57,730 bases of DNA, filler included, from Catajapyx aquilonaris (GCA_000934665.2; 3 parts of 3 records of this genome joined end to end with filler, not necessarily neighbours in it); one strand, 5' to 3'. Counted from the first letter of the whole stretch, positions 13,631-57,730 are shown. The notes: generated by a model from the letters alone, not told the origin. Translations and numbers: made by a program.

Positions 13631-14187
13631 GGGGTGTTCAGACTGAATGGCCCTGCGTCTCTGCCCAAGATATGTCCAGCCTGATACTCATCAACTCTCT
13701 CTTCATGTGTTGTATTAGTGCTGCTCGTGTCGGTGGTATAGTTATTTTGAACGTAGACCGTGTTCGGCTCTGATTTCTAAAATAAATCGACTTTGACTTG
13801 AAATTTTACGCATATGGTGCATTTGCTATCAAAACCGACCAGATATTCAGAATCAGGGAGTCTTGCTTGATTTTCGAACATGCAAAATCACTGAACCGTT
13901 CCTTTAAGGAGGGTTATTACGCGGGTTTTTCTTGGGCTTCTCCCCCCCCCCCCCGCCCCCCATTCCCATTTCCCCCAATTTAAAGATCAAATTACGGTAC
14001 GATACGGCATACAGGTTACATCTCATTTACATGACAGTAATTATTACAGCATTACATACATTACATACATTACAATTACGCAATTACATGACAGGAATTT
14101 GACGCTAATTAAAGCACCGTAATAATACCCGTATAATATTCCTACCCTTATTGTTGTTGTGACATGTTTGTTGTGTACGGCATACAG

Positions 14188-14924
14188 GTGACGTTCCTGA
14201 TATCCGGAGGCAACCGACACGACACGTTTCGCATTGAAGGTGGTACTGGTCGCCTCGTACTCAACCGCCCTCTGGATTTTGAGCGCGTCCAGAACTACGA
14301 GCTGAACATCACCGCTCAGGACGCTGGAAGCCCGCTGCGGTTACGCAGTACCGTGTCGTTCTCTGTCGTAGTCCTTGATGTCAACGACAACAGACCAACT
14401 TTTCCATCGACCGCCTTGGTGCGACAGATACAGGAGGGGATCCCTCCTGATACACCAATCGTCACTGTATCCGCCGAAGACCCTGACTCAGGGTCGAGCG
14501 GACAGATCCTGTATTCCCTCAAGGGACAATATCCGCCAGGCCAACATTTTACTGTCGATGCGGCAACCGGTGTGGTACGAACGGTACGTCCCATCGATAG
14601 AGAGTTCGCCGATACGTTCAGACTGACCGTCGTAGCGACGGACCAGTCCCCGTCGGCATCCCTGTCGTCCGAAAAGACGCTGACAGTCATCGTCGAGGAC
14701 GTCAACGACAATGCTCCGTATTTTGTGTCTATGAACGCCGGCGTCTTAAGGGCAGGCTGGCCCCAAGGCATCCCAGTCATGCAGGTTTCCGCACGGGATT
14801 TGGATTCAGGTACCAACGGACTTGTCACATACGAGATGACTAGCGGCGATGTCAGCACCTTCAAGCTGGATAGGTCGACTGGTGTGTTGTCTCTCAACCG
14901 ACCGGTTCTGCAACCCGAGTTCAG
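14188..14924 (+). CDS. ft: Internal exon of Fat (cadherin-related tumor suppressor, FAT4-like), ~2.5 cadherin repeats
   Basis: LDFE, DVNDN (x2), IDRE and AxDxDSG cadherin motifs. FPSTALVRQIQEGIP, DTFRLTVVATD, SEKTLTVIVEDVNDNAPYFVSMNA and NGLVTYE closely resemble insect Fat as I recall it. Acceptor catacAG at 14186-14187, donor AG|GTACGT at 14925. Confidence 0.85.
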
Positions 14925-15584
14925 GTACGTATTTTGAGCAGTGTCTTCTAAGCCCAATCTGCCAAAAACAACAATGATGCCCTTCACTGGGAGTTAACGT
15001 CATTGCCAGCATAATAGTGACACATTGATTCATTTTGCTTTGGAAATGTGTGACTATTACGCGTAAGCGAAATACACTTTACATATGGTACCGTATGTTT
15101 TTTTCTTCTTCTGTTCTGCAGTAATAATATAGCAAATAGCTTTTGAAACACAGCTCTTGTCATGTGGTATAGGCTGGGTTGTGTGATTGATAGTAAACCC
15201 AGAACAAGTGGTTCACCTTTGTTATTCATTGATTCCAATCATGTTGCCAAGAGTAGTGTTGAGTGATGCTTAGTGCGTCTGTCGTTCTTCCACGAGCCTT
15301 ATTTATACAGTCGGTCTGCAGCCACCGCCATTTGACCGACCAACAATAAAACGAAAATAAAAAATAAACTATAATTCGTACAAATAATACATCACATCAC
15401 ATTCATAGTTTTCACCCTCCGCATCAACTCTCTGGATCATAACACTGCTTTAGTGTTCGCTTAACACAGCATAAAATAGTAATATCGCGATAAACATCAC
15501 GCCCTGCATTTATATTGCCCTCTATAGTCCCAATACGTTGTCTCTACGCTTCCTAACCATCGAAAGTAGTTAGAGGGCGCGGGC

Positions 15585-20839: not shown

Positions 20840-21145
20840 TTGCATGAGCCTTATTGATTTTAACAGCTATGCAAAATAAAGTGTCTGTAATTATACCAAC
20901 ATTCTGCAATTAAAATATCCACTTCATTATAATAGGAGCTAAAATACACATAATGGTAATGTTATGAGCTGCAACAAGATCCATTACTGCAAAGACAATT
21001 GTTCAATCTCCCAGTCATGCACAATAAATACAAAGTAATGTAGCCTAATAATGTAGTTTTACAGAAGAAATTGGCATATTACTCCTCAATTATGAAAAAT
21101 GGGCATTGCATAAATACTGCTTAATGCAAGGCTTAATGAGCTCCT

Positions 21146-33665: not shown

Positions 33666-33779
33666 CTGGAAAGAGAATTGCATGTTACTTCTATGGACCT
33701 CCAGTATCTCCTCACTTTTTATTTCCAGGTACTATCGAGCTGTACTCTAGAAAAGTTCAACATATGCCAAGTGACGCAC

Positions 33780-34344
33780 CCAGCTCTCTACTTCCTCCTC
33801 TTTCCCTATGGAAAAAGCGGTGCAGCACACTGAGCATGGACTGCCTTGTTGAATGAGGTCGGTTCCTCACAGATGAAGCCAAGCTTGATCGAGATGAGTT
33901 GGACAATTGCCTGCTCATTATCCTCATAGGATGTGTCCCACCTCGAGGCGAAGAAGCAGACACTTCCACTTGTACACCTTGAAGGTCATCTGGCAGCTCT
34001 GCCCTGTCACCCCTTCCCACCCCTTCATCCTCTTCCATCACAGGTTCCAATGGTATGAACTCAGCCTCTTCCTCAGGAACCTCAATATCTGCAGCTGAGC
34101 CCTTGGGTGGGTCAGTCCTGAACTGCTCAGCAGCAGCAGTATAGGGGAGTTCAAAAGGAAACACCTCATCCCAGTACTGGTCTTTGATCAACTCAGGATG
34201 TTCCTGGTGCATCTCATCCACAATTAGGTAGGACACCTGGAGGTTGCGGTCTACTAGCCAGTTCACTTCAAAGTCATCATCATCCTCACCAAAAGGGTTC
34301 ACTAATGACTCGGCCACTTTCAGCCAGCCCATATAAAAGAAAAA
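33780..34344 (-). CDS. Bestrophin exon with Ca2+-clasp motif
   Basis: [46 protein letters not shown], diagnostic of bestrophins; AG/GT boundaries. Confidence 0.93.
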
Positions 34345-34470
34345 CTGCCAAGAAAGAAATCATCAGATGTAAAGTTTTCAGTCTCTTTTCTGATTACTAT
34401 GACATTTAAAATTAAAATTGTTATTTTTCATTTCTGATATTTTTCTTGTACATCTAAGCACCCAACATAC

Positions 34471-35137
34471 CTGAAGAAATGGAAATACTGGGAAGATGAG
34501 ATCAATCTCATATCCTGGAATCTTCTTGCTTGGGTCCAAATACTGCCTACCCATGAGTGATGCTAAGAAGAATATGTACACTGCCAGAGTCACCACCTGC
34601 GTGTAGACCAAAGGTATGCTGACCCAGTCGTAATTGAGCATCCCTCCACACAGGCCTCGAAAGTTGGACAGTTGTTGAATGAGCGTGTTCATGGCAAAGT
34701 CATCTCTTATTCTGCCCTCCTTCCTGGCCCGAGTCACTATACTTCCAGCCCATACCAGTGGCATCCAGTACTTTGGATGCGAGGTCTTCTCATTCAGGTC
34801 ATCAAATATTTTCTTTTCATTGGGCAGCATCAACCCGGCTTCAACCATGTGGTCCAACGTGGGGAACCTCTTTTTCAACTGTGAGCTCATCATGCTCAGG
34901 GTGACCACCAGGGACAGATTAACATAGCGCATGATGGTGCGTCGCATCAGACGTCCTCGATCATCCTGTCCATGGATGCAGGTGGACACAAACATTGCTA
35001 GGGAGTCAGGCCAGGGGATGCCCATGTATTGGTCCCACCAGCGCTTTATCACTATTGAGACATAGAATCCCAGTACAAATGACACTGGAATCAGGTCTGA
35101 ATACTGCTGGCAATATTGGGATATCTTCTCAAAGAAT
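34471..35137 (-). CDS. Bestrophin (Ca2+-activated anion channel, Best1/Best2-like) RFP-TM exon; first coding exon absent from contig
   Basis: IPVSFVLGFYV, RWWDQY, RGRLMRRTIMRY, KKRFPT, YDWVSIPLVYTQVV; acceptor ttgcAG, donor CAG|GTATGT. Confidence 0.95.
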
Positions 35138-35764
35138 CTGCAATATAATAATAAGAACAACATCATTCCCTTCAGTAAAAAAAAAGAGTAGTAAGACCTC
35201 TGTGGCGGAATGAAAGTACTGAAACAAGGCAGGCACATGTAAGACCTTCACCAATTGATCTAAGCTGTACCATAGGTCTTACGCAAGCAATTTCCAATAT
35301 TATACTGCTCAAAAAATCTCCTTTCTGAAAACAGTGAAATGAGCCACTCAATATAAGTGTGTTTTCTGAAATTAGAATCTTCAACATTAAGCACATTGAA
35401 TTTCTATATTAATGGTGAGAATCTATGGCCATAAAACATTTATGCACAATCGTCACCTCTTTTAGATACTGATTTTAACTATGATGCTTAAGTTTTCTAC
35501 ATGGAGACGTAAATTGGTGAATTTTAGAGGCTCTTTTTCAATGGGATTCTGCATTTTCAAGAGTAAACATTTGAAAGTCTGTGAGGATGAGTTCAGTTTT
35601 TTCCCCAAATAAAACATTGCTTTCTGCTATAAGTCTAGGCCTGTGATACACATACTGTGCCAGTTTCATGCTAATCTGAAAGTTGCTACTTTGGATCTCC
35701 TCAAGTTGCCTACATGCATTAAAACATTATCCCTATACAAATACTGTACAGCAAAACTGTTGTA

Positions 35765-39211: not shown

Positions 39212-40949
39212 TACATAAAAAATGTGCACGATGCCCCATATTTTGATCTGCATATCATTTGCTAAACTCAATTTTAAATTTTGCGCATTCAGTGCTCCCC
39301 ATTGTAACAACCTATTGACGCATTGCCACATTGTGCAGTTGGCATTACTTTTAAAATCCAGTACTAGTTCGACGAGTTATTTGCGACAAAAAAAATGTGT
39401 CACCATGTGCTTCAAATTTATATTAAAAATTTTGGAAGGTTCCTAGCATTTTCTGTGGCCACTTTCAAGTCCCCAAAAATTGCCAATTCCTGAGTTTCAA
39501 GCCCATGTTTTCAGAACTCAAGGGGGGGAAATTACTCGCTTTCACTTTTTTATGCAGTATATCCCTGCCCATGCTAAATGGCCCCTGTTGAATATGTAGT
39601 GACTAGTTTTCCCAAACCCTCGGTGCTTGGCCCCGGCATTGGCCCCCACCCTGTGCGCACCCTCCAAACTCACCTCTGTTCCATGATGGAGAGGGTCTGC
39701 CCAGCGTCGGCCCAGGGGCAGAGCAGCGGGCAGAGCTGCAGTGCAGAGCGTCACCGGCTTGGCTGGCGGGAGGAGAAGGAATGGGAGGGAGCAGGGGGTG
39801 GGTGGGGAGGGGGACGCCAAGTCAACCAGGCTTGGAAACAAGCGCGACCGCCATTTTTAGTCTAACCAATGCCATGCAGTGCCTGTGTTGGAAGCACGAG
39901 GCTCTGTATTTCCAGGCCTACCCGGCATTTCTCCCTCCCTCTCCTCTCCCCCTCGCTCTCCCTCATTTCCCCTGCCTTGCCAGCTTGCCTTACTTCTCTG
40001 GGGCTCGTGGTGGGTGGTGCGGCCCCGGGACTCGCCCCTGGTGCTTCCCCGCGGGTCCTGCCTGCCTGCCTGGGATGCCGGCGACTCGACCCAAGAGAGG
40101 ACTGGTAGTGAGAAGAGGGCAAGGCTCGTCCGGTCAGGCTTGGAATGGCTGTGTTTGGAACATACGGGAGGAGGACTGGGGGCCAGCCCATCCCTTATTG
40201 GGTAGGTACTACAGTACGCACCAGCTACAACTAATGGTTCAAGTGTGTGCCCATGCACGGTGCACATGAAAAGGTCGAGGCGTGATGCATGGTGCGGAAA
40301 TATATTGCTAATGCGGCACCGATGTTTCGTTAATTGTTTTGATTTGTGTTTCCAAATGTGGCGTATGTAGAGAGGCACTCTAGTGTAGAGTGGTCCGAGG
40401 CTGAGGTGGGGTGGAAATTTATTGGTAAGGGGCACACAAAGCCAAATGTACTGTACATGCTAAAGTGAGACCATTTGTAGTAAGAGAAAGGAATTCTGCA
40501 AAAATACAAGGGATTTTGCCAGGGATTTCTAACAGTTATTTTTTTCCCTCTGGTTTTCCAAGTATTAAGACTTGTTTTCACTGCCGACATCATGTCGCGG
40601 AGCGCACAGTTAAAACAGAGTTTGTTTATCGTGTCGGTCCCTCTGCTCGGACGGAGACGCGAGGGTCTGGGGGGGGCTTGTGTGCGAGGACACATGGAAA
40701 GGCAGTAGAACCATCTGTTCGTGTCTTCCGCGCAAGAAATATGCGCGGTTGTGAAGCAGGTTGATGAGAAGCTCTGAAGAAAACCTGTAGCGGGGACTTG
40801 TAGTGGAAACATCTCCACTTTTCCGAACGAAGATTTCTTGCAGCAAGACATCGGCAGTGAAAATAAGGCTTTACGGCATGTTGTAGGGCTTGCATAAAGC
40901 CTGTGGGTGGATTCATCCATTGCAACTATGTGGTTCATACCCTCTATAC

Positions 40950-41445
40950 CAGGGGTATTCAACCAGTTTCTGACAAGGTCCAGTATTTACCTTTCTTGGG
41001 CCATTGAAGGTCCGGACCCCCCACCCCCGGATAAAAATATAGATTTTATATGGTACCACAGGGTTCATATTTGAAAATATAAACATGTGTAGCAAGGGTA
41101 GGAGGGCCTATCAAGACAGGGCGTATTAAGGCAATATTTCGCCCTTTATGATGTCCTGTACAGGCGTGTAGGCAGAAGAATTTCGGAGGGGGCCCATTTC
41201 GTAAGCAAAAGGTGAACAGGCCGTAAAGGGCGGGGAACGAGCCCACCGCAGGTGAAATTTTTTTGGGGTGAGGTGAGGAGCTTAGGTGAGATATGGGAGA
41301 TTTGAATGGGTGTGTATTTGATGAAATTGTAGCACTTTTTCCAAAAAATCAGGAATTAGTAATTAATCATGCTATTTCAAACTGTCCTGTATATTGTCGC
41401 AGTCCGGACAAAATTGCGTCACGGTCCGCCAGTTGAATATCACTG
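40950..41445. mobile_element. hAT (Buster/Charlie-type) MITE, same family as 871-1352, opposite orientation
   Basis: TIR CAGGGGTATTCAAC / GTTGAATATCACTG; 8-bp TSD CTCTATAC (40942-40949, 41446-41453). Confidence 0.9.
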
Positions 41446-42062
41446 CTCTATACTGTGCATATTACTAGTGTCGGTCACATTTCTGGTGCGAAACATTGTA
41501 GGTTATGCGAGGCTGTCATAAAATACTGCTAATTGTGCCACTGTTTTTATGGTCTGTTACGCAATGACTCGGTTACTCGACCACAACTGGCAGTCACACA
41601 AAGGTCATTCCATGTCAAATCATCACACAGATTGGCCTTGACCCCTCAGATTTTGATGAAACTTGCTGTATCAAGTAGTGTCCTTACATAGTTATGAATG
41701 AAAACCAGAAAAAAGATTTATTTTTTTGCCTACCATTCAAGAGTTATTAAATATTCAAATTGTGCCTAAAACTTAATGCATCTTGAAAAACTCAATAATT
41801 ATTCTCTCAGGAACCAGATATTTGTTGTCTTGGAATAATTTTAATAAATAATTTTTCTGTTACAGGTGGTGCAGGAGATGTATCCTTCCCAACTCCTCAG
41901 ATTCATGTGGATGCTGCCAGATGGATAATGGGCAATTGCAGCTGATTGGATGTGTGACTTAGCAGTAGTTTGTTGGGTGAGATCTTTTTCCCGTCTCTCT
42001 GAAGTAACAGTCACAGACAAATTTTAAGGGTAACCTGGCCATAAATATTACTGCATTAAGTC

Positions 42063-42208
42063 ACCCCTCAGCCACGCTCTCAGCCTCATTTCATGAGGTT
42101 GTCAGTGCCAGAAAATAAAACTGAGGGGAAGATAAAACACCTCTGTTAGGAAGCACTCGATTCCAATATATCCAAGGATGCGGGTGTGCCGTAAACAGGG
42201 GGACAAAT
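42063..42208 (+). ncRNA. SNORA65: Box H/ACA snoRNA, SNORA65(U65)/snR34-like, copy A
   Basis: Hairpin CCCCTCAG..CTGAGGGG, H box AGATAA (42130-42135), hairpin CCTCTGTT..AACAGGGG, ACA (42203-42205)+3 nt. Pockets GCCAC/GCCAG and TAGGAA/GCCG complement conserved 28S CUGGC-UU-GUGGC and CGGC-UC-UUCCUA. The 3' pocket is 15 nt from ACA. Confidence 0.82.
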
Positions 42209-42553
42209 ACTGCTTTGCCGTAATTGAAATGGCATTCTGGGCTAGGATTTCATGCCGGAATGAGTAGCCATTGCTTGCTACATTTAGCAAATTTGGTTGT
42301 TATGGAATTATTTGAAGTAACGTTTGTTGTTGTTTCAGGCAAGGCAGCCCTTCACATCCGGTTGGTTCCTGCACAGGTCATGGGCATTCAGTCGCAACAA
42401 GCTGCATGCGTCACTTAGGACTCGTTTGTTTGGTGAGATTATTTCTTATAACTTCCCTTGAATTTTAAGAGAAATCTACATGCAAAAGTTTGAATTTACC
42501 CCTTTGTCACGCTGATAGCCTCATTTCTTAAGGTTGTCGGTACCTCATCATTA

Positions 42554-42662
42554 AGGTGCGTTTACATGCGAGCGATTTGCTTGCACGATGTCATCGCCGA
42601 GCGATGCCGTTTCTCTCGGCAATGACATCGCGCGATCAAATCTCTCACATGTAAACGCACCT
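42554..42662. mobile_element. PIF/Harbinger-type MITE (paralogous copy 45021-45129)
   Basis: TTA|AGGTGCGTTTACATG ... CATGTAAACGCACCT|TTA. Confidence 0.85.
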
Positions 42663-42715
42663 TTAAACTGAGGGGGATATAAAATTCCTCTGTTAGTGAG
42701 CACTCGTTTCCAATA

Positions 42716-42807
42716 CAGGGTGTTCCGGAGTCGTGGGTCACTTTTTGATCACTGGTATTTCCCGATAGCAGTTATCAAAATGTGACCCACAACTCTGGAA
42801 CACGCTG
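42716..42807. mobile_element. Tc1/mariner-type MITE (paralogous copy 45183-45274)
   Basis: TA|CAGGGTGTTCCGGAGTCGTGGGTCAC ... GTGACCCACAACTCTGGAACACGCTG|TA. Confidence 0.85.
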
Positions 42808-42881
42808 TATATCCAAGGAGGCGAGTGTACTGGAACGTTGGAACAAATATTGTTATGCTATGTAATTGAAATAGTATTCTG

Positions 42882-43812: not shown

Positions 43813-43951
43813 CCCCTCTGCCAAGCTGATAGCCTCATTCCTTAAGGTTGTCGGTGCCTCATACTGAGGGGGATATTAAATTCCTCCGGTAGGAAGCACT
43901 CAATTTCATTGTCGCCAAGGATGCAAGTGTGCCGTAAACAGTGGTACAAAC
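43813..43951 (+). ncRNA. Box H/ACA snoRNA, SNORA65/snR34-like, diverged copy C
   Basis: Two hairpins, H box ATATTA (43873-43878), ACA at 43946-43948; 3' pocket TAGGAA/GCCG retained, 5' pocket altered to GCCAA/GCCTC. Confidence 0.65.
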
Positions 43952-44529
43952 ATTGCTTCCTTAGGAAATTTTGAACATGCTTTGCTCACTTTGTGCCATC
44001 ATGTTTAGTGGCCTAAGCCTTCGCTCACCAATGATTAATCCAGGTGCAGGCTCAGGTCTAATGTGGGATTTGAACGAGATGGGAATTCACTTTGAAGAGT
44101 GTGTCTGTGATATTCATCAATTTCCAGTCATGAATATTTTTCCCGTTTAATTGCTACGTGTCTCAGATACATGCTAATTACACGACCTCAGTCCTTGTTT
44201 TCTCATCATGGGTAGTTGATAGAGCCCCATCCATGTTGCTGTTGAAAGGAGGAAGTTCAGATTGATGTGATATGATGGATGAGGCAATCAGAGTGTCTTG
44301 AACTTGGTATTTTGGAGCACGTTGTAAATCATGCCTTGTGTTGCAGATTGTTCAACTCATCCAGTTTGCGCAGCTGTATCCTATGGGCCCTATGAAAGTC
44401 CTGGAGTTTCTGAAATTTGGATATGCTACTCAAGAAGGGTTTGTCAGGTGAGATGTGGTTTGTTTTGCTGCATTTTTGGTAACTGTTGCACATTTCTGGA
44501 TGGAAATACGGAATTAGTTGCATAAATTC

Positions 44530-44675
44530 ACCCCTCAGCCACGCTCTCAGCCTCATTTCATGAGGTTGTCAGTGCCAGAGAATAAAACTGAGGGGAAGAT
44601 AAAACACCTCTGTTAGGAAGCACTCGATTCCAATATATCCAAGGATGCGGGTGTGCCGTAAACAGGGGGACAAAT
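44530..44675 (+). ncRNA. SNORA65: Box H/ACA snoRNA, SNORA65/snR34-like, copy D
   Basis: Almost identical to copy A (offset 2467 bp); all boxes and guide sequences intact. Confidence 0.82.
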
Positions 44676-44965
44676 ACTGCTTTGCCGTAATTGAAATGGC
44701 ATTCTGGGCTAGGATTTCATGCCGGAATGAGTAGCCATCACTTGCTACATTTAGCAAATTTGGTTGTTATGGAAGTATTTGAAGTAACGTTTGTTGTTGT
44801 TTCAGGCAAGGCAGCCCTTCACATCCGGTTGGTTCCTGCACAGGTCATGGGCATTCAGTCGCAACGAGCTGGATGCGTCACTTAGGACTTGTTTGTCTTG
44901 TGAGATTATTTCCAATCAGTTCTCTTGAATTTTAAGAGAAATCTACATGCAAAAGTTTGTATTGA

Positions 44966-45315
44966 CCCCTTTGCCATACTGATAGCCACATTTCTTAAGG
45001 TTGTCGGTACCTCATCATTAAGGTGGGTGTACATGCGAGCGATTTGCTTGCACGATATCATCGTTGAGCGATGCCGTTTCTCTCGGCAATGACATCGCAC
45101 GATCAAATCTCTCACATGTAAACGCACCTTTAAACTGAGGGGGATATAAAATTCCTCTGTTAGTGAGCACTCGTTTCCAATACAGTGTGTTCCGGAGTCG
45201 TGGGTCACTTTTTGATCACTGGTATTTCCCGATAGCAGTTATCAAAAAGTGACCCACAACTCTGGAACATGCTGTATATCCAAGGAGGCTAGTGTACTGG
45301 AACGTTGGAACAAAT
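44966..45315 (+). pseudogene. snoRNA copy E, disrupted by the same two MITEs as copy B
   Basis: Duplicate of 42498-42848 including insertions. Confidence 0.75.
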
Positions 45316-45344
45316 ATTGCTATGCTATGTAATTGAAATAGTAT

Positions 45345-45885
45345 ACTAGTATTAGATATGTATATAAGGGGGCTTACCCGGCATAGCCATCTACAGCCCC
45401 CGGCTCCATCAACATCTAATCACCGAATAGTGACAACATCATAAACAAACAAGAAGAGCCAAACAAACCTGGATAAACCCGAAAACCCCCAAGGCGCGAC
45501 CGCAAAAGCAACCACCAAAACGCGCATAGACGCATACAATTTAGAGCGAAACCCTTCACCACCTCAGATTTAGAGAACCAAGAGAACCAAGAGGACCAAG
45601 AGAACCAAACCAGTGCACATTAAAACTCCTCCGGCGACGGAGCTCGCCGTACGGTGACACACCATATTCATCCATTGATCCTCTGGAGCCAAGCATCAGC
45701 CGCCAAACAGAGAGAATTGAAGCTCCTCAGAAGAGATCCCATGAGCATCCTTGAAGAAGGGGGCCAGCCAGCACCGCTCCGCAAGGCCAGCCGCATCACC
45801 CCGGAGCGGGCCTCCCTCAGCTCCGGCGTCCCGCAGTGCCACAACACGTGATCAGGAGTCTGCCGCCCCCTCCCGCAGGGACACC
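45345..45885 (-). mobile_element. 5'-truncated non-LTR retrotransposon (R1-like ORF2 C-terminus and 3' UTR)
   Basis: CPCGRGRQTPDHVLWHC zinc knuckle followed by ..GAGWPP..; absent from the paralogous block at ~42880. Confidence 0.72.
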
Positions 45886-48164
45886 GATTCATCAAATGTC
45901 GTAAGTCAAATTTTCTTTGTAAGCGGTAGTATGGTTGCTGCCACTTACAAAGAAAATTTGACTTACGACATTTGATGAAGCAGCCCACAGGTTAGCATGT
46001 TCTGCCGGAACTAGTAGCAATCACTTGCTAGATGTCACATTTTGTTGTCATGGAATTATTCGAAGTAACTTCTGTTGTGTTTCAGGCAAAATGTGCTTAC
46101 CCAGAGTCTCTCATTACATGCATTGGCTTGCTTTTCAAGCAAATTTTCTATCAAAACTCATGAAAAATGTGTTTGTTTGTTGGGACACATTGACATAATT
46201 CCTTCTTTGTGTCTAACATGTGCTGCATTGTTTATGCAGTGCAGATCACTGCTACATTAGCTGTTACAAGTGCTTTACAGAGCTTCATTCAAAAACTGCG
46301 AAATTCAATCCAGATTTTTGCCTTGTTATCTGCCCAAGAAAAACTTACGGGTGCTCTGTTAATGAGAATCCAATGCTATCCTGCCATGCACAGACCTAGT
46401 GTGGGCTCCAGCACATAGAACAGTGGTTCCTCTTGAAGCCACATGAGTGAGTCTGGCAACCCGCTCGCCCCAGTTAGCCCCAGTGAGCAATGCTAGCGCC
46501 AAATTTCAGGCTGGGGAAGACTCGTATATTAAACTGCTGTAACGTAGGAGTTGGGTGGGGCTGAGATATAAGTGGCAGTTTCGACCAGAACTCTTTCGCG
46601 TTGGTGTATTAACTATGCACCCACCCCATGCAATCGATGTACAACAAAACAACGGGGGGTTGATATTTTTTCGGACTTTTCTTTATCATCCACACCCGGA
46701 TAATCAGGAGTACAGTGTATTTATAATAAGTGTTTATAGGGTCATGGCTGGACTCTGACTGTGAATATTAATTTTGCCCCATTTTCTCATTTACAGTTTG
46801 TGCAAGTATGTGCTGTCAAAGCCCCAGTCGATGCTACCAGCATGCCAGCAAGCTTACCAACTGACGCTTTGGTTTGGCTGGACACACTCTGAGCTTACTC
46901 CCGTCAGGTCAAGAAACTGGATGCTGGAGGGTGGTTCCAGAACTGACATTGCCATATGTCAACATAGAGAGGCAACGATCTTCGTCCTTCGGTCAAGCCG
47001 TCTTCTAGAGTTCCACCTGAATGGACTAACCTATTGATATAATTATGTAAGCTGCCTTGCTCTGGTACCGTTCCCTTCTACAAGAAGATGCCTGCCAGGT
47101 TACGTTTCTATACCAGTCTACAGTCACAACAAATGCTTGACAAAAAAGGAGATAGATCGGGAGAACAACTATCATTTTGTAAATCTGATGGACTCGGTCT
47201 AACTTCTTGCCAAAGGTTCCAGATATAGCATGTTGCTTTAGGGATGGTAGCCACACTGAACTGGTAGTACTTGCCGCTTTGAGTTGTGTTTCCAATGTGT
47301 CAGTAAAAACTTAAAATCGATAATATCAGAGTTGACTTGAGCCAAAAAAAAAAGAAAAGAGAGAGAACAATACTGGAGGACAGAGAGGAAGGACTTGCAG
47401 GAGCACCATGATGATAGCGAGGCCTTTGGGAAGGAGGGAAGGGAAGGGCTTCAATCCCCCAACCATCAAGAGATCCCTTGCGGGATGCTGGCAGGGACAA
47501 CATGAGGGTGGCAGTTGGGAAGAAGACCCAGGGGCCTAATCCACGCCTTCTCATTCAAGATAGATGCAACAAGGCTCAAGTCTCCTCATGTACCATTAAA
47601 TAACAAGATGTAATCAAAGTTGGCAACATGAGACGAGCTGCGGCGGTATCTGCATTGGGGTCAGATATCACCTTTGGCTACACTTTGAGTGTAAAATTTC
47701 CTGCTTATTCACAAAACTGGTAACAATGAGAGGTCAGTGGCAGTGACTGACACGCCCACTTGTCTTGCTTGATCAAGCACACATGAAACATAGCTTGTGC
47801 TGGCTTCCTTCACCTGTACACACAATAAGCTATATTAAGCTGCAGCTTTTGATTGGTATTTTTTCAATTAGGTTGGGATATCATCCCTCGCAGTTGCTGT
47901 GGAACATTTTAAGAACATAAATGACTGACTGTTGCATGCTCATGTTCTTTAGAGGGTCCTCACCGAATTGGTGTACTCCTGCTCCGTGGCGCAGATGATG
48001 AGTGTGACCACCATAGGCATTGTGGTAAGGAAACTGTGCGCCTTGTCTTCTATAGCTCTCTGGCTAGCACACCCTGGTCTGAAAAGCTAAGATCTTGTCT
48101 GCCTGTGCCATATGAGCAGAGGAGGTATCATCAACGTTCATGCTTCAGGGGGACACCTGTTGTT

Positions 48165-48251
48165 TCTGTTCAGTTGATGGTTGGAAAGCTGACCATCCTG
48201 AGGGTCTGTGAATTCATGGCTCATGGTACAGTACAAAACAAAGTTGATGGC
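48165..48251 (-). pseudogene. Isolated class A GPCR TM7/helix-8 exon fragment
   Basis: After acceptor cacttattctAG: AINFVLYCTMSHEF, then QTLRMV after a frameshift; resembles the NFxLY-C-xMSxxFR motif of neuropeptide receptors. Confidence 0.45.
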
Positions 48252-48784
48252 CTAGAATAAGTGAGGGAAAGCTGGAAAAAAATATAAGCTGCCCTTTTTT
48301 TCATTTCTTTTGCTCATGCATGAAGAATTTCCACAATTTTTAGATGTGCTTATGCTTGGACATCACCAGAAAACCTTAGAGTGTTCTTGTAGTGGTCCGC
48401 GGGATGTTGGGAAAGGGTAGGCAGTAACGAGACTGGGTATCAGTCATCTACTGTATTGGTCCTTGACTACATGTTCTCTCCTCAACAGTTCAGGAGGGAG
48501 TGAGGCCGAGGCCTGTACCAAGAAATAAAGAGTAGTAAGGAAGCGCCATAGAGCAACTTACCCACTGATTGGCTGGGCCCCAAAATGATGCGTCCGGCAG
48601 CCGCTCCCGAGCGGCAGTTCAAATGGCAGGTGCTGGCTGCCTGGACTGAAGCCACTTTCTTGCCTGTTTGGCCCTGACGTTTCTGCTGAACCAGCAGTCG
48701 CTCAGCTTGCAGGCAGTTCAGGTGTATAATCTGCGCAAATGTCCTGGTATGGGAGTACATGCGGATAACTTTCCGGTGAATTGC

Positions 48785-48960
48785 TGGATATCTTGCCTCC
48801 CCAGAATCTTTATCTAACATCTTGGAAAAGAATGCCTTGTTTATCACTTTACCAGAAGGTGAAATAATTCCACCGTCTAGAATATGATTTCGGAAAAGCT
48901 TTATCGTGTGGGGCATGTCAGCAAAGACCAGATGCTTCTTGACGGATCAACGGGGTTGAG
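48785..48960 (-). pseudogene. P-element (THAP9-like) transposase fragment
   Basis: ADMPHTIKLFRNHILDGG matches the D-x-x-H-x-x-K-x-x-R-N motif. Confidence 0.75.
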
Positions 48961-48982
48961 AACCGCATCTATCTCCTTCCTT

Positions 48983-49240
48983 CTAGGATACATCAATACC
49001 TGCCAGGTTACATTCCATAATCATTTGGTCCAACTTCCTATCCCTGCTAACTTTCACTTCTTGTACCAGTTCCAACACTAATGGTGATGCATGAGTGACA
49101 TTCTCGCCTTTGAGTTCCATTATTGTTTCTAAGAACTGGAGCATGTGGGAAAGTGCTCGTGGATATGTCAGGTTGAACACATAGTAACACTTAATAAGAA
49201 AGCACACTGCCTGCACAACTGATGATGTCTTCACCCATCA
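48983..49240 (-). pseudogene. Fragment of TE-associated ORF (SAMD3-like/CACTA-associated C-terminus)
   Basis: AVCFLIKCYYVFNLTYPRALSHMLQFLE; family assigned from memory. Confidence 0.5.
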
Positions 49241-50126
49241 CCCAACACAAAGTACTGATTTTCCTGTACTATGAGTCCTGGCTGCTGCATGCCACATTGC
49301 TGTCCTTGCATGATAGCATCCTCTGATGAACAGCCCTCCTAATAGGAGGTAAAAACAACTTAGTGACTGACATTGTTGCGACATTTCTTGTGCAGCAGTG
49401 AACTTAGAGTATATCCTGCACCTAAGTTCACCATTGCACTGTAACAATCCATACCAACAGTGACCTCTATACTTCAGATTGGCATGAAACAAAGTATACG
49501 GTAAAGATATTTAAGTGACACTCCAATTAAGAAAAGCACAACTATACCCGGACTTCCAAGAGTAGTAGCTTGAATGTCTCCTCCGGATCAAGCCTCTTAT
49601 TCCTGAAGGAACCTCTCGGAATGTAAGGCAGAATCTTCAATGTTATCATGTCTCTCTCAGCTGAAACAGGGGCAAAACAGTTGTTAGGGTAAAAACGCAC
49701 ACATCACCTAATGAAGACATTCCTAAGGTCTACCTTCACTTCTGCTGTCAGCATTTTGGATAATTTTTTGGGCAACAACAACTGCGGGTACTTTATTTGT
49801 CCTCAGAAAGTCCTCTGGTTCATATATGCTCATTGCTTCAATTTCAGTAGTGGTCGCCATGTTTCTCCTCACCACCACACTCCCAACCACCAGGGATTAC
49901 TCTCTCCCCTTCCTGTGCTGTGTGGTACATGAGCAAAATTAGGCCAAAACACCTGTAAATGCCACCATGCTATGGCCTGCCTAATGGCTAACAGTGGGCG
50001 CTACTGCACGTACTTGAGCTTGCAGATATCATCTCAGAGTTCTACAAGTATCTCAGTCTCAGACAAGAGCATGAGCAGTTCATGCCTAAGGCGATGACAT
50101 ATGCTCATTGTGACGTCACGCTAATG

Positions 50127-50424
50127 CAGTTCTTCCCAAACTGTGGTAGCGACTCCGTTTGGGGTCGTGAACTTAATATTTTGGGTCGCGAGGGAGGGTT
50201 AAGAAATCATTTTCCCAAAAAGTTCTATTTCCATTGAAGATTATGCCCATAAGGGCGGTTACAGAACAATTCAGATGTTCGACAATAGTACGTAATCAAG
50301 GATTTTCATTTTACTGTTTACCTGTCTTTTTATGTAGGGGGGTGAAAATGTGCAGATATGGGGGGTCGCGAATTTTTCAATGCGACATTTTGGGGTCGCC
50401 AACGAGAAAAATTGGGAAGCACTG
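50127..50424. mobile_element. hAT-type MITE
   Basis: CAGTTCTTCCCAA / TTGGGAAGCACTG with GGGGTCGC subterminal repeats; no matching TSD. Confidence 0.6.
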
Positions 50425-50739
50425 CTCGAAATAGCTCCGCACGCGAGGAAGATACTTGACAATGAAGAGAAGTAGCAGCTTCTTAATATCTGCTTATAAA
50501 ATTTGTGACTGCCATAATACGTACCGTAGTATTGTGGAACACATTTGTATTGTATACAGTCGTATACGACTTCTTCAATAGTAATGTTATACTAATACCT
50601 GTGCTGCTGTTTAAATCGGTAAAATGCTGTCGCCCAACGCGCTCCAGGAGTCGTGGAAAAGCGAGATGATAGTAATCAGGATAGTAACCTCATTCCAGTC
50701 TTCTCCTCCGTGCTCAGAGATACCACGTGAATTTTCGCC

Positions 50740-51195
50740 GCCCCCCCTCAAACAGGTCGCATGGTATTTGCACGACCCCTTACGGGAACATGGAATCCAT
50801 AGAAAATGGATTTCTTCCATTTGCAGTTTAGCCCTCGTGCCATTATGACTTGCACACATGAAAGATGTCCCATTATTGAATCGCTGGCATGATCACACCA
50901 CATCCTAGTATCAACACTCATCTCGTCGAACGAAAAAACGTACATTCTTTGGAAACTGCTGCAACTTTGTGTGCCTGTATGTCCAGGACAACAAGGAAAC
51001 CTGGCGGACACTGAAAATTTTTTTGTCCAATAGCGTAGCGTTGTGAGTCCGGGAAGTGCTTGTAACACTTCTGACAGAGACACCTCAGAGCCAGACCCCT
51101 AAGTATATCGTCCTTCTGCCACCTGGTCCTTCTTTTCTGCACAATGCATCTGATCTGTGCATCGGTGAAAACGTTTTTCAGCACCTTGGCATACT
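50740..51195 (-). pseudogene. P-element transposase N-terminal/catalytic fragment, frameshifted
   Basis: VFTDAQI..RWQKDDI; FSFDEMSV; VQVIMARGLNCKWKKSIFYGF. Confidence 0.85.
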
Positions 51196-51708
51196 CGAAT
51201 TAGCCAGCCGATCACGACCTGCTTTTAACTCAGATGTCCCATCCGATGGGTAGAGCATCCTGCCATATAGGTGACGTATGGCAGGATCAGATGGCACACG
51301 AAATGAGGAGGATGCCGATGCAGGCTTAACATGGATGTTTCCTCTGAGCTTCATGCACTCTCGCAATATAATCACTAGGAGCGTATAAAGGTGGTCCAAA
51401 GCGACCCTCTAGCGTTGAATGCACAGTATCTGCTTCCATCATTGTGTGGCCCTTTTCCAAGATTATTTGCTCAACAACATTCTGCAAATCAGAGGACAAT
51501 GTTGCAAAGAAATCAGGGGCTCAATATAAGATAACAGCACTCTTCCAACATGTTGGAAAATTATGTAAGTATTTTTTATGGAATTATGGACTACAATTTG
51601 CATTTAATAAATGTGTAAGTGACATGCAAAGTCCCTCGACTTAACTGCCAGCTGGAAATTTATTTCCAAGTTTGTCATTGACAAGATCAGGATTATGCAA
51701 AATAACAT

Positions 51709-52260
51709 TCACTTGTGATGTGGGACATTATCCATCACAACCACAGTGGGCTCCTTGCCTAGGTTGAGGATCAACTGCTCATTCAACCACTGCAAGAATT
51801 TGTTGCCATTCATCTGTCCGTGATAATCTGGATTCATTTGGTTTCCACTGGAGAACAGCAGGCCGGTCCCAGGTACAAACCCCTTCTCCCCTCCAGCATG
51901 GACCACTACGAACCGTGGCCCATCTGACTGCGGCCTGGTAATGCAAGTGGCTGCTGTGCCATCCTGCCAGCCGTACTTTGATGTCGCATTCTGAAATGTC
52001 CCAGTTTCGTCCATCCAGACGTCCAGTTTTGGCTGAGGTGAATTAGGGTTGTTCCGCATTCTTCTGAGAAATGCTATTCGCTTGAGTGCAATGTCCGTCT
52101 TCTCTAGCAGCTTAAGTCGGTTGTCCATTTTTTTCCACCGGAAGCCCAGCTTCTTCAGGATCTTCCTGAAGGGCGAAATTTGACCTTGGGAGGGGACGTC
52201 TACCTTCTTGACCCCTGCCAATAGCCCGGGCTTCAATCGATTACAAATGTTGAATAGAAC
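51709..52260 (-). pseudogene. IS630-Tc1-mariner (DDE_3-type) transposase fragment
   Basis: LKKLGFRW, VWMDET, VVHAGGEKGFVP, DYHGQMN, VVVMDNVPHH; truncated before the third catalytic residue. Confidence 0.88.
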
Positions 52261-52559
52261 TGGAACTTCAACTATTCCTTGGTGATGCTCTGGATGTGCT
52301 TTATTTGTAAAGCAGACTTTCATAATATGGAATGCTATACATTACGTTTGTTGGTCAGAATTGAGTACAGTGTTATGTTATGAAAAGCAGTTTATAGTGA
52401 GTGTATTGACCGTTCGGCGAAGAAGGAAACTAATATTAGGATATAGGTATTGCAGGCGAAAAAAAAGTATGAGCCATACGTAGTATAGACAGATAGGAAC
52501 AGATAAATAGGTGAAATAGAAAGGTAAAATATAAAGAGACAGACAAGAATCCTTTTCTA

Positions 52560-53400
52560 TCGTTTACTATCTAATTTATCGATATTAAATTCACGATTTT
52601 CGTATTTCCGATAATTTCGGCAGAATGTCGCTTTCTGCGCATTTACCGAAGTTCCTCTCAGCTTTGCGATCGTGAATTTCCAGAGGACATTCCCGACGTT
52701 TCTTATCATTTGTAGCTGTCTTGTTCTGTATGGAAAGTCTGTCGCAGGTGCTGCATGTATCTTGCCGCGGTTTTCCTGAAGACAAATTAAAATCTGTGGC
52801 GAAGATTCGTGTGAAGGTTTCCACACTGACAGGGGTCTTGGTCCCATCATCGGCAGAACAAATTGCTGTACAAATTGCATGTACATTCTGCTTATGGAAA
52901 GCTCTGGCGAGAGATATGAGCGATGTGTATTGGATGATCGGGTATATAGTGTGACGTTTCTGTAGGGTATGAACGAATGCGTCCTTCATCTGAATATATT
53001 CTAATGGTTCCTGCATGGCTAAGTTGTACTTTTTTTTGCAGCGTGTTCTCAACTCCATGACACCTTATCTGGTTTTGCGGCATGTTCTTTGCTGCAGTGT
53101 TCGTGCCATTAACGCCTGTGTATTCTTCTCCCCGAGATTTGCTCCGTTTACGAAGCACTTATTCCACTGCTCTGATTGCCTTTTTTGAGGGACCAGCCAT
53201 GCAAGGAATATGCTCGTCATCCGCCATCTTTGAATCTTGCTGCTAGGGTTGCCTTTAATGCTAAGTATCACGGCACGATGATTTTTTTTAAACCGATTAA
53301 ATGTCAGGGTGCCACTTGGCAGATACCCCCTTATTCATGCAAACCCATATATGCTTGAAAATGGCAGGTACCTCCATCTCGCCCCGGGCCCTAGAGTTGT
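52560..53400 (-). pseudogene. Sola1-like transposase N-terminal fragment, frameshifted
   Basis: FTRIFATDFNLSSGKPRQDTCSTCD motif; upstream SHY segment. Confidence 0.68.
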
Positions 53401-54019
53401 TGATGTTGATCCCGTGACATCAACACTACATGCTGAGTCGATAGAAATTATCTCAGCGGATGATTGAAGCTGTTGCGCTCCCCTCATTATGGGAGTGACT
53501 CCAAGTATAGCCCATGGCCCCTTGTCACTCACAAACAAACAACAAGCAACACACAAATTTACCAGTTAAGTCTGACAAGTATTACTTCTGCAGATTCTAC
53601 AGATCTCTGCAACAAAAAAATACGCGCCATGACTTTTGAACCAACCCATATGAGCTCATAACAAACCTGCATTTTCACGTAGGTTCCTATCATCTTTTCT
53701 TCTGGATATCCAGGACAGTGAAATTGTGACTTTACATGGGCGGGTAATGTCCCTTCTCAAATGATGTAGCATACCTGGGGCATCATCCTCTGTGTGAACT
53801 TTTTGACATGTCCCTCACATGCCTTTAGGTATTTCACCAGTGGATCTGGAGCTACTTTCAAACTGTCAAACGGTTTGCCTGTGCCCTGCACATAGCTTTT
53901 TGGGATCATCTATGTCTACCTTGGCAACATCCAACATCTTGCACTCCTGGCAAGGGTGAAAGGGTTTGTGAGTTTTTAAAGACCTTAGAATCATATCCGT
54001 GTCGGACTACTGTAGTATC

Positions 54020-54254
54020 TGATCCAATGGAGGAAGCCACCATCTACAACGTTGATAATCATTTTAAGGTCCATAGTTGTACTACTCTCTGCAGGAAATG
54101 CATCATACAGTGATGACTTCATTGACATCACCATTCCACCCTCATTGAAGAGGGCCAATGGAATGGGGATAACTCATACCTTTAAAAATCCGCAACATCT
54201 TCATCACTCTTTTTTTGCAATAGTGGTTCTTTGGAAAATCATTAGAGGGTCCAT
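54020..54254 (-). pseudogene. Academ-like transposase fragment
   Basis: Manual translation MDPLMIFQRTTIAKKSDEDVADF*RYELSPFHWPLFNEGGM..KSSLYDAF..NVVDGGFLHW. Confidence 0.6.
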
Positions 54255-54475
54255 TTGATGGAATTACTCACAGAGGCCAATGGCAAGCCTATATTCTTTT
54301 TAGATTGCTTGATGTCACCAAAATTACTTTCAACCATATGTAGGTATAATGTGTTCTGGTTATAATATTATAGTTAATAGCCACCATTGTAATAAAAACT
54401 TCCTTTTTAAAAAGTAAAACTAATATTTTCAACCATTTTTTTCGAAATATGCGCTTTTTCATCCCCCTCTATCTT

Positions 54476-55100
54476 CTAAACTATTGATCCTACAGAAGAC
54501 ATGTACAGGTGAAACAAGTTGTCCCATTTGGTCAATTTTTTTGGAACCCTGTTGTGGGCATCGGATGAGTTTTTCCTCTTCCTGCCGTGGCGCTCCTTAG
54601 ATGTCCATTCATTCATATAAAATAATTTGGTGGTCAAACTCATCCTGTGTTCCCTGCATGACTCTAGAGAGAACCATTCACTGAAGCTGGACTCAGTCGC
54701 GGCCGTCATTTTATTTACCAGCTGAGATCTGATGTTATTTGTGTGGCATATGTCTGGGTAGGCCTCCTCCATCACCTGCAATTGAAGCCTGACTACGTTG
54801 CAGAACTCTTGCGACGGCACACGCAGATGTCCAAAGGGGTTCGAATCCTTGGTTGGGTGCGCCTTCCAGAACGTGAGCACGTTGGTTTTTCTTCCCATGG
54901 CCAATTCATCGTCATGTTCCAGTAGCGTGGAGGTGCAGGAATCGCAGTGAGATTTCTCGAGTAAACGGTGCAGCAGGAATCCAGCGAAGTACGCAGCAGC
55001 GGACTGAGACAGGTCACTCTGCCCAGGCTTAGTCCCCGTGTCAGCAGTGGACTTGAGGTAATCATGGTCGTGCGCGACAACGCTGGTCATCACAGGGACT
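54476..55100 (-). pseudogene. P-element transposase C-terminal fragment
   Basis: AYFAGFLLHRL..CDSC..L; GHLRVPSQEF. Confidence 0.7.
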
Positions 55101-55104
55101 AGGA

Positions 55105-55450
55105 CTTGCAATAGCAGGGAAAAGTGACAACCACCTTGTTTTGGACTGTGATAGAAGTTGCTTATAACTGGTATCAACAAACTCACAGAAAGACTTCAAC
55201 TCCTCGGTTCTGACAGTATAAATTATTGAGAAATAGTTGTACATTTTCAAGATTAAGCATTCTACATCTATTGACACATTGTCAGCTCCATAATGCAGTG
55301 CATTGTGTAAAATGTGTGCTGTACACATTCTTCCCTCCTTCCTTACGATTGATGCCCCCAAAATTAGTGTTTGTGTTGTCCACAGCAAAACCTACACACT
55401 TGAGATACTTCAGCAATGATTCTACATCTTTCACCTTAAGGACCTTAATG
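55105..55450 (-). pseudogene. hAT transposase fragment
   Basis: CTAHILHNA (CxxH) and KTRWLSLFPAI. Confidence 0.82.
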
Positions 55451-55539
55451 GGAAGTACTGTACATCATTGTGGTGATAGAGATCAGGACAATCCAATGAT
55501 ACCTGGGCATTAGGTTTGAGAATTCTGAATCTGCTGTGG

Positions 55540-55975
55540 TTGACTCCACTCATCAGCTTTGATACTTGCAAGTCATTTATGTGGTCAGAGGAATAAGAAA
55601 AAAACTTTGTATGTGGATATCAGAATTCTTTCCTTGTTATTTACCACTGATTTTCTGTAGAAGGGAGACAGGTGGTCTGTATAACCTTTGAAATCAGTAG
55701 TTTGCATGCGAACAACTTTGAACTTTCGTTCTACCATATTTTCCCAGTCCTTGTGAGTTTCGATTTTTTTTCCGCCTGCCCTTTCATTCTTTCAATGGAG
55801 GCAAAGTGCCGATCAATAGACTGTGCCCTGGTATTGGGAAGTGTTGTACAATCCTATCAAAGCGCCCAAGCTTCACCATAGAAAAGAGGAACTGAATAAC
55901 AGCCGAATTAAGATTTTGGCCAGGGCATGCATCGGAAAAGATGTGGAGATAGCGTACTGTTTCTGGCAAAGGTGG
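55540..55975 (-). pseudogene. Sola1-like transposase catalytic fragment
   Basis: LHIFSDACPGQNLN...IVQHFPIPGHS. Confidence 0.78.
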
Positions 55976-56014
55976 GCACAGCTAACCGAAAAAATCAGCT
56001 TCTCTAACAGCTGA

Positions 56015-56200
56015 TCAGCTAACTTCCTTAGGACATATGATTTTAAGTTGTAAAGACTCCCTGCCTGTCCTTTTATGATAACATCCTTAGGCTTGCATAA
56101 GGCGCACCGAAAATTGAGAACATTGTTGTTCTTTGTGTCCCTGGAGACGAACACGAAGTACTCTGCTAGGTGGGGCCAAGGGTTCCCATCGCCATCGCCA
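56015..56200 (-). pseudogene. BED-type zinc finger of a hAT transposase
   Basis: PWPHLAEYF...FRCALCKP...SLYNLKSY. Confidence 0.62.
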
Positions 56201-57269
56201 ACACTGTTCTTCTCGTTCTCGGATTCATCCTGGCCCTCAGCTTCCGCCTCACCCACAGCCACAAGTGTGGCAAACATCGTCACCTTGACCTTGTATGATC
56301 CACCAGGCACCAGTCCACCACACCAAAAGACTGCGGGGGCCCCTTCCCCCCCTGTGTTTAACCATCGCGGCGCCACAGCGACATCTACCGACGACTTTTG
56401 TGAGCATCAGCAAAAGGGCCGAAGTCCAGGACTAAGGTCCTTCTGTTACGCCTTGGAATTTTCACGGCTTTTTTCATCATGAATGTAGTATGGACTTCGG
56501 TCTGTCTCACACGCCCTGAGATGGCGGGAGGGTTCATCTACGTTTTCATGCAATGAAACGAATTTCACCAAATTGTGGACTTAGGCCCTTTCTATTCTCC
56601 TAGCTTCAATTATATTCATTATATTTTCCCGTTTATTGCTCATTTTCTCATCATATTTATGTGAAGGAATAATCCTCAAGAAAATACTCACACATTAACA
56701 AAATAATGCACGCCTCTGGACATGATTTTTCATTTACTTTCATTCTCTTATAATGAAGCTCTAACTTAGTTGAAAAATAAGCAGGTACTGTCAACGAGTG
56801 GCATCCACTTCATAGATATCAAATCCTTCTTTTTTTCGGCTGGCAGAGATGATCCTTTTCTTGTCTTTGCACGTCGGATGCTACACTCTTAAGTCATGAA
56901 ACGTCTAAATGCCTCTAAATAGAGGTTTAAAAAGTGCATGTTTTTAAACCTCAACTTTAGAAGGTACATGAAACCTATAAAATACAAGGTACCTTGTAGC
57001 CTCTCCTCTCGAGGCCTTTTATAAAGGTGCATTTTAGAGGCTACGTCCAGAATTAAGGTTACAACAAACCAATGAAATTAATTACTACGGATTAATGCAT
57101 ACACATTAGCATGTTTTTATTTCTCTGACATGACTTACATGGCCACTGAGGTCTGAATATACTGAAAATATACAAACATGCATACTTAACATATAGACAT
57201 AACCCTCAAGTTTGTCCCTTTTGTTCTGCATATAATATCAGTATGAGGGTAGGCAGCCACTTATGCAAG

Positions 57270-57730
57270 GAGTGGCAAGGAGGGGACCGCTTCAACCATC
57301 ACCCTCCGGTACCTGGAGCTGAGCAGCAGGGCCAGCGGTGCGTATTTGTCGAGTTTGAGTTGCCGAGCCGCTTGAAGAGATTCCGGTCTGTTGTCAAAGG
57401 GGGTCGTCACATCGACGATGATGGCAGTATCAGCTCCTTGGGTCAGAAGAAGGTCGGGGCGCAGCGAGCAGCCAGGGAAGACCTGCGGGTTACATCTTTT
57501 GACAGTGAACTTAGCCGAAGCCGCTCGCTTGACCCTCTCCACTACTGAGTCATGCCTCTTTTGGTATGCAACCGAGTGTCGGGCCATGCAATGATCAAGG
57601 ACATGAGGCAATCAACCCAGACTACCACTTCAAGATCTTCGTTCCTCACAGGGCGACGATGAGGTCCTTCGGCACGGAGCCCCGGGAGGAATGACCCGTG
57701 CTCTCGCAGCTGCTTCACCAGGCGCTGGAT
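57270..57730 (-). mobile_element. RLE-type non-LTR retrotransposon fragment (NeSL/Utopia-like C-terminus)
   Basis: LPHVLDHC, RHDSVV, LRPDL, IIVDVTTPF, KLDKY: zinc knuckle remnant plus PD-(D/E)xK endonuclease; runs off the window end. Confidence 0.85.

Follow-up and report, generated by a model that had tools for sequence, protein, structure and literature searches.

We identified a block of decayed transposon coding remnants at positions 45345..57730 of the Catajapyx aquilonaris stretch introduced above, here called the window (the whole stretch, 57,730 nucleotides with filler), and found every recognisable remnant on the minus strand. The block is marked out by an excess of long open reading frames (ORFs) and by protein homology, both confined to that strand, and it is cut by the window end. 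It holds pieces of P-element type and IS630/Tc1 type, probably a piece of an R2-type retroelement, and several frames without a family match. We read it as probably a co-oriented transposon graveyard, probably intronic, and as a tentative candidate for a source of PIWI-interacting RNAs (piRNAs). The explanation that we favour, with less than even confidence, is that the block is an old and inert pile of transposon fragments in very long introns whose orientation was set by passive sorting.

The strand bias can be seen without any annotation. For each strand of 45345-57730, the number of stop-to-stop frames was set against the numbers in 500 dinucleotide-preserving shuffles. The minus strand holds 11 frames of at least 100 aa against a shuffle mean of 3.01, five of at least 150 aa against a mean of 0.20, and a longest frame of 239 aa against a mean of 130 aa; none of the 500 shuffles attained any of these values. 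The plus strand holds three frames of at least 100 aa (shuffle mean 3.75, with 361 of 500 shuffles attaining three) and none of at least 150 aa (shuffle mean 0.34; 500 of 500). About eight protein-coding remnants are thereby kept on the minus strand of the block, and none is detectable on the plus strand. When a 12.4-kb frame of view is slid along the window, the ratio of minus to plus frames of at least 100 aa is 9:7, 9:8 and 10:10 over the first 20 kb, grows steadily more lopsided rightward, and reaches 10:1 and 11:3 at the block, the most extreme of the 12 sliding windows. The excess of frames is not specific to transposons, because control blocks also lie above their own shuffles, on both strands at 1-24.8 kb (a region that holds tandem repeats, palindromes and exons) and on the minus strand at 12-45 kb. 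It is the strand asymmetry that constitutes the finding. An earlier note on this DNA had claimed that all coding transposon remnants here are on the minus strand, and the shuffle comparison (11 versus 3.01 on the minus strand, 3 versus 3.75 on the plus) bears this out, as does homology found on the minus strand only.

For that homology, Pfam was searched on both strands of the block with 117 frames of at least 50 aa (E ≤ 0.01) and with the first 150 by coordinate of the 157 frames of 30-49 aa (E ≤ 0.1); 57 longer frames were scanned again at a relaxed E ≤ 2. Three transposon-type matches were obtained, to TNP-like_RNaseH_N, DDE_3 and DUF7869, all on the minus strand and all below the curated cut-off. 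The plus strand gave no transposon-type match in the 117 longer and 150 shorter frames, and its only matches were to unrelated families, an opioid peptide and seven others, at E 0.002-0.07. A PDB search of a plus-strand control frame (47925-48257) returned nothing useful. These results bear on the suspicion that the one-sidedness was created by the reader, who might have translated only minus-strand frames and overlooked remnants on the plus strand. The first reading was indeed made without tools, and of its 12 fragment labels, which belong to 8 kinds, 7 labels (5 kinds) were not reproduced. Against this, the Pfam screen, which is blind to strand, gave three minus matches versus none on the plus strand, tblastn with P-like proteins gave three versus none, and plus-strand ORFs occur at the level of chance. 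Strand-blind screens have already largely refuted the idea, and we consider it hardly credible.

Three of the fragments are related to P-element-type transposases, the number that had been proposed before any search was run, and relatives found with HMMER, tblastn and a match to a solved structure all agree on this. A 239-aa frame at 54479..55195 on the minus strand corresponds to the C-terminal region of a P-element/THAP9-type transposase by HMMER and tblastn. An exhaustive HMMER search of 1.84 billion representatives gave 141 relatives of this frame at E ≤ 1e-3 and eight at E ≤ 1e-10, and the frame aligns with the C-terminal ~150 residues of relatives that are 700-1050 aa long. Among 18 long relatives that were scanned, TNP-like RNaseH_N was present in all 18, the GTP-binding insertion domain in 17, RNaseH_C in 16 and a THAP domain in 10 (E ≤ 0.001). 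The frame itself matched no Pfam family, its PDB search gave nothing useful, a word-based search among longer proteins gave no match, and in the Atlas it met only serpin clusters at 0.83, which is noise.

Comparison by tblastn of 31 full-length P-like proteins (at least 600 aa) with both strands of the whole window gave matches at three places and no more, each of them a minus-strand site within the block. The first, 54521-55114(-), falls in the 239-aa frame and covers residues 746-912 of 923 at E 7e-19. The second, 50793-51098(-), covers residues 284-387 of 923 at E 4e-6 and was matched by 5 of the 31 proteins; it belongs to a piece at 50751..51098(-) that corresponds to the RNase H N-terminal domain (Pfam TNP-like_RNaseH_N, E 4.1e-4). 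The third, 48791-48940(-), covers residues 424-475 of 899 at E 1e-4, within a piece at 48485..48946(-) that lies just past the RNase H N domain and matches the solved Drosophila P transposase 6p5a in the PDB at E 0.0078. Together, the pieces show homology to P-element/THAP9-type transposase in its TNP-like RNase H, GTP-binding and C-terminal regions. They do not amount to a mobile element, as only residues 284-387, 424-475 and 746-912 are represented and no inverted repeats frame them. The piece at 50793-51098 and the one at 48791-48940 lie collinear, ~1.85 kb apart, as minus-strand parts of one protein, and may be one P copy split by a later insertion. Because two of the three are collinear parts of one protein, the P pieces represent two to three insertions at most.

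This collinearity raises the possibility that the fragments came together a single time, through nested insertions that favour one orientation or by being captured in some larger element, and afterwards moved here or remained joined; their orientations would then not be independent. The split of the P pieces by 1.85 kb would fit such a history, and nested human retroelement insertions are up to 2.6-fold sense-biased according to Table 3 of PMC2836564, the part of that work on which we draw. However, that bias is described for target-primed retroelements and not for DNA transposons, and the block itself has no framing terminal repeats. A second copy of 46.1-57.7 kb, or of any portion of it, is absent from the window, and the other scanned windows contain no look-alike of two of the ORFs or of 43845-55844 (12,000 letters, comprising block and left flank). 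We therefore regard a single assembly as very unlikely.

Other fragments could be placed with varying firmness. A 210-aa ORF at 51712..52341(-) corresponds to the N-terminal half of the IS630/Tc1-type DDE_3 domain. Its Pfam match (E 1.2e-4, profile positions 4-92 of 146) scores 22.4 bits against a cut-off of 28.6, and in the Atlas it lies at 0.93 to arthropod clusters carrying DDE_3, with its ten best matches all in one family; the PDB gave no match. The Tc1/IS630 label of the earlier note is upheld by this sub-cut-off Pfam match and the Atlas result, and with the P pieces it brings the fragment identities observed to four. A 116-aa ORF at 57264..57611(-) looks like the restriction-like endonuclease region that R2-type non-LTR (long terminal repeat) retrotransposons carry at their C-terminus. 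The three best of its four PDB matches are R2 proteins, at about residues 1003-1093 of 1169, and Pfam gave no match. A retrotransposon with a restriction-like endonuclease had been suggested here, and the R2 proteins point weakly the same way, although E values of only 0.12-0.65 make the assignment a lead only. A 65-aa ORF at 55787..55981(-) has a weak DUF7869 match (Pfam E 0.0031, 17.6 bits versus a cut-off of 26).

The remaining labels of the first reading, namely R1-like, hAT (two), Sola (two), Academ-like and CACTA-associated, were not confirmed, since Pfam gave nothing at E ≤ 2 and the PDB gave nothing or noise. The ORFs that probably or perhaps carried these labels are long frames of the minus strand without a family. 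A 177-aa ORF at 55876..56406(-) is probably the former hAT (no Pfam match at E ≤ 2; PDB noise at E ≥ 0.7) and is one of the long frames that make up the minus-strand excess, and a 109-aa ORF at 55065..55391(-), with noise only in the PDB and Pfam, is probably the second. Overlapping or adjacent ORFs of 142, 157, 88 and 89 aa at 52560..53334(-), without Pfam or PDB support, perhaps correspond to Sola; a PDB search of 52594-53064 gave nothing useful. The R1-like label belonged to a 107-aa ORF at 45671..45991(-) that has a Cys/His motif and no Pfam or PDB match. The upstream third of this ORF lies inside a hairpin at 45888-45979 (42-nt arms, 95% complementary) with related repeats at 42.2-43.1 and at 44.7 kb. 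Across the block, no reverse-transcriptase (RVT), integrase (rve), gag or env family was found by Pfam in 267 ORFs from both strands. No inverted-repeat pair frames any fragment, in agreement with the earlier statement that the fragments mostly lack terminal inverted repeats, and there are no terminal repeats around the block. No part of 46.1-57.7 kb is repeated elsewhere in the window, and the whole window has no Rfam match at gathering scores and no tRNA.

How much weight the shared orientation can bear depends on the number of independent events. A figure of (1/2)^7 had been put forward on the assumption of eight independent superfamilies, of which two are firmly verified here and one or two weakly. 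About three independent events are firm (the P C-terminal piece, the P N-terminal and middle pieces, and DDE_3), or five with the weak ones, which on homology alone gives 2^-2 to 2^-4 for any common strand. The ~8 remnants of the ORF test would, if they were independent, bring back something close to the original figure. The block also came out of a very large screen, in which this genome alone accounts for 988 windows. A neutral graveyard, in which a few independent insertions came to share one orientation and were then picked out by screening many windows, would fit these numbers, and the long-ORF excess of the control blocks fits it as well. Against it stand some eight excess long ORFs on the minus strand versus none on the plus, in the most asymmetric of 12 sliding windows. 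Chance is thus, in our estimate, an unlikely explanation.

The favoured explanation starts from a gene to the left of the block. A lone cadherin exon with three cadherin repeats (Pfam Cadherin, E 7e-44) lies at 14185..14928 on the plus strand. Its frame, 14137-14934(+), is intact over 266 aa and shares 58-61% identity with residues ~1340-1600 of cadherins of ~1750 aa from insects, springtails and crustaceans. The exon ends in a splice donor, ...CCCGAGTTCAG followed directly by GTACGTAT, with the textbook form AG|GTACGT. In 110 of 120 homologues, the protein continues for a further 128-245 residues, made up of one more cadherin repeat and a hydrophobic end. This tail, of which ~130-150 codons remain to be accounted for, was not found in 15-57.7 kb by tblastn with 12 tails at E ≤ 5, nor did a profile of 110 tails, run with filters off on 2493 frames of at least 15 aa, find a match downstream. 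A match to EGF_Hmr-1 at 40614-40751(+) (E 0.0029) was considered as a further cadherin exon and rejected, as its translation is unconvincing and Cys-rich and the homologue tails have no such domain. Since 1-14 kb contains no upstream cadherin exon either (five homologues), introns of this gene exceed 14 kb. Unless the gene is broken, the absence of the tail from the window implies a next intron of more than 42.8 kb that spans the block on the plus strand. The block would then probably lie inside an intron of a plus-strand cadherin gene. The earlier note had itself named an ordinary intron of a plus-strand gene as a case that would refute a piRNA cluster, and this case is plausible here: the exon and donor are seen, and the span follows from the missing exon. 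As a separate observation, the lengths of the cadherin introns suggest that the genome is probably very large.

If a plus-strand cadherin precursor mRNA has long run across the block and is spliced to an exon beyond the window, transposons arriving there would be sorted by orientation. Autonomous elements that land in the sense direction would bring promoter, splice and poly(A) signals, would disturb the host gene and would be purged. Elements that land antisense would be tolerated and would stay and decay on the minus strand. An antisense bias of intronic elements is established for long interspersed nuclear elements (LINEs) and LTR elements in mammals, as reported in the part of PMC3088655 used here. 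We infer that the intron spans the block and that selection rather than chance fixed the orientation. No piRNA-specific feature is needed to account for the layout, and we count this in favour of passive sorting, which remains our tentative choice.

A second gene complicates the picture. Two bestrophin exons separated by an intron of ~120 bp lie at 33766..35184 on the minus strand (exons 35184-~34473 and ~34345-33766). Their frames match Pfam Bestrophin at E 2e-92 (34381-35247(-)) and E 8e-24 (33760-34359(-)), with identities of up to 76% to insect proteins and 73% to those of decapods. Judged by its genes, the window is arthropod DNA. The possibility that this is a 5'-truncated processed pseudogene is excluded by the ~120-bp intron, which is real in the alignment. 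Few parts of proteins in this family are as well conserved as the first ~60 codons. Searches with 8 homologues (E ≤ 1) and with 120 (E ≤ 0.05) did not find this N-terminus in the window. The best E there for a profile built on 103 N-termini was 1, Pfam did not see the N-terminus in short frames of 35.2-43.5 kb (149 of 188 frames), and a search for short N-terminal motifs gave nothing. The first coding exon is probably beyond 57.7 kb, more than 22.5 kb upstream. With that exon outside the window, the block would lie in a 5' intron of bestrophin, and the transposon pieces would be sense to this gene.

Composition points to a shared domain. The ratio of observed to expected CpG is mostly 0.77-0.98 in 1-18 kb (one bin at 0.55) and 0.33-0.64 from 21 to 57 kb, with its lowest values at the bestrophin exons. 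At ~18000-21000, this step has the look of a boundary, with a methylated or germline-transcribed domain beyond it to which both bestrophin and the block belong. Methylation of gene bodies in arthropods is the general background to this reading. Two low-complexity frames also lie in the CpG-poor domain, a Ser/Pro-rich one of 217 aa at 26106-26756(-) and an acidic one of 155 aa at 27904-28368(-). No homology was found for either; bestrophin or another gene may have its 3' exons here.

Several of these observations weigh against orientation sorting as the cause of the layout. The pieces are antisense to cadherin (+) and sense to bestrophin (-), so they are not antisense to every gene transcribed through them, and their orientation relative to bestrophin is the reverse of what purging predicts. 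The block lies in one CpG-poor domain with bestrophin, the gene to which its pieces are sense. The cadherin intron over the block is deduced from an absence and is not itself seen. The transposon coding remnants are concentrated in 12 kb instead of being spread over 15-57 kb; in 1-45 kb, no transposon Pfam family was found in 127 frames of at least 75 aa, nor in 30 long frames at E ≤ 1. The bias does not extend along the whole supposed intron, because the plus strand at 38267-38599, ahead of two 44-base N runs, carries a fragment that matches the C-terminus of PIF1 helicase (all seven PDB matches, best E 3.9e-4). PIF1-type helicases are encoded by Helitron-type elements. Poly(A) hexamers number nine on the plus strand of the block versus eight on the minus, an absence of asymmetry that helps neither sorting nor a piRNA reading. 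The mammalian intron bias is partial, and DNA transposons were excluded from that analysis, as far as the cited part of PMC3088655 describes it.

As an alternative to passive sorting, the block might be a one-strand piRNA source. A long plus-strand transcript, started from its own promoter near 45 kb or supplied by the cadherin precursor mRNA, would carry the pieces in antisense. Cleaved, it would yield piRNAs that direct PIWI proteins to the mRNAs of transposons, and selection would retain antisense insertions. Such a source would account for unrelated transposon families that are short, lack terminal inverted repeats and all lie on one strand. It would also explain both the all-or-none bias and the local concentration, given that Pfam finds no remnants in the other 45 kb. 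There is a precedent in a large arthropod genome, that of Aedes aegypti, where some clusters overlap genes (PMC3259105, in the portion cited). On the other side, the visible stretch is only 12.4 kb, with the plus-strand PIF1-like fragment at 38.3 kb bounding the co-oriented block leftward and the window end cutting it on the right. Only two superfamilies are firmly verified, and the block is probably intronic to two genes. It has no content of Gypsy elements or endogenous retroviruses (ERVs), the driver of the bias in Drosophila flam-like clusters according to the part of PMC10643416 consulted. We consider a piRNA source possible, with considerable doubt. The more specific proposal, that the block is the visible part of a one-strand cluster built of DNA transposons, sitting in host introns, transcribed antisense to bestrophin and being one of many, is in our view somewhat unlikely. 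Passive sorting and a piRNA source both need plus-strand transcription through the block.

Outside the block, the window contains several repeats. A direct repeat of 829 bp (42052-42880 and 44519-45347, 95.9% identical, 2467 bp from start to start) ends where the block starts. These copies were considered as LTRs and rejected, as their ends lack TG...CA and they have no matching flanks. The interval 42-46 kb is full of short hairpin repeats resembling MITEs (miniature inverted-repeat transposable elements). Near-perfect palindromes of foldback or MITE-like character occur at 7105-7921, 9815-10133, 17190-18429 and 19366-19650, with arm identities of 72-89% and a largest size of 1.2 kb. An inverted repeat pair at 906-1352 and 40950-41428 is 91% identical over a separation of 40 kb, and its left copy is broken by a 190-base N run at 1085-1274. 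A direct repeat of ~410 bp at 31042-31449 and 32003-32404 is 94% identical, with copies 960 bp apart that each contain a minus-strand frame of ~106-137 aa. At 4975-5985(-), a 337-aa open frame includes tandem 54-bp units (repeats at 5443-5833) that encode a repeated 18-residue motif, ...EPEHRDVTLKSALKKTPR...; all frames of 4975-5985 are open on both strands, and the only match is a sub-threshold one to HrpJ.

If the block does make piRNAs, it would represent a one-strand cluster directed against DNA transposons and situated within host introns. The flamenco-type "antisense trap" would then reach beyond Gypsy retroviruses and take in cut-and-paste elements, and the block would bear on how such elements are policed in an arthropod genome of very large size. 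If instead it is no more than a graveyard within introns, the block is ordinary, yet it would suggest that the sorting of orientation by host transcription also acts on coding DNA transposons.

Known systems resemble the block in different respects. In flamenco and the flam-like clusters of Drosophila, as described in the part of PMC10643416 on which we rely, fragments of several families form an archive whose orientation is mostly the same and runs counter to an inferred long transcript. The block is alike in its single orientation and its several families, and would be alike in opposing a transcript if one runs along its plus strand. Those clusters span 227-1085 kb, are intergenic, have a defined promoter and owe their bias only to Gypsy/ERV elements, whereas the block is visible over 12.4 kb, contains P and IS630/Tc1 pieces with no LTR-element domain found, is probably intronic and is known by sequence alone. 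The enrichment in antisense Gypsy/env LTR sequence that narrowly characterises flam-like clusters was not seen in the 267 ORFs of both strands. The antisense bias of mammalian introns (PMC3088655, as excerpted here) is similar in that, should the cadherin intron extend across the block, the elements here too are opposed to the host transcript. Transposon bias within introns is also the subject of PMC3517506 and PMC1794541. The mammalian bias differs in being partial and in concerning LINE and LTR elements, while the bias here is complete among recognisable fragments, involves mostly DNA transposons and runs sense to bestrophin. Nested retroelement insertions (PMC2836564, in the section cited) share the co-orientation of elements inserted into one another; their bias is about two-fold, is explained there by the L1 target-site sequence and is not one known for cut-and-paste elements. 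The clusters of Aedes aegypti were defined by mapped piRNAs and the block by its layout in the sequence alone, according to what the cited portion of PMC3259105 reports. Many of them have all or nearly all of their transposon sequences in one orientation, with sizes from a few kb upward, and the block shares with them a large arthropod genome, a one-strand layout and, as in some of those clusters, a probable overlap with genes.

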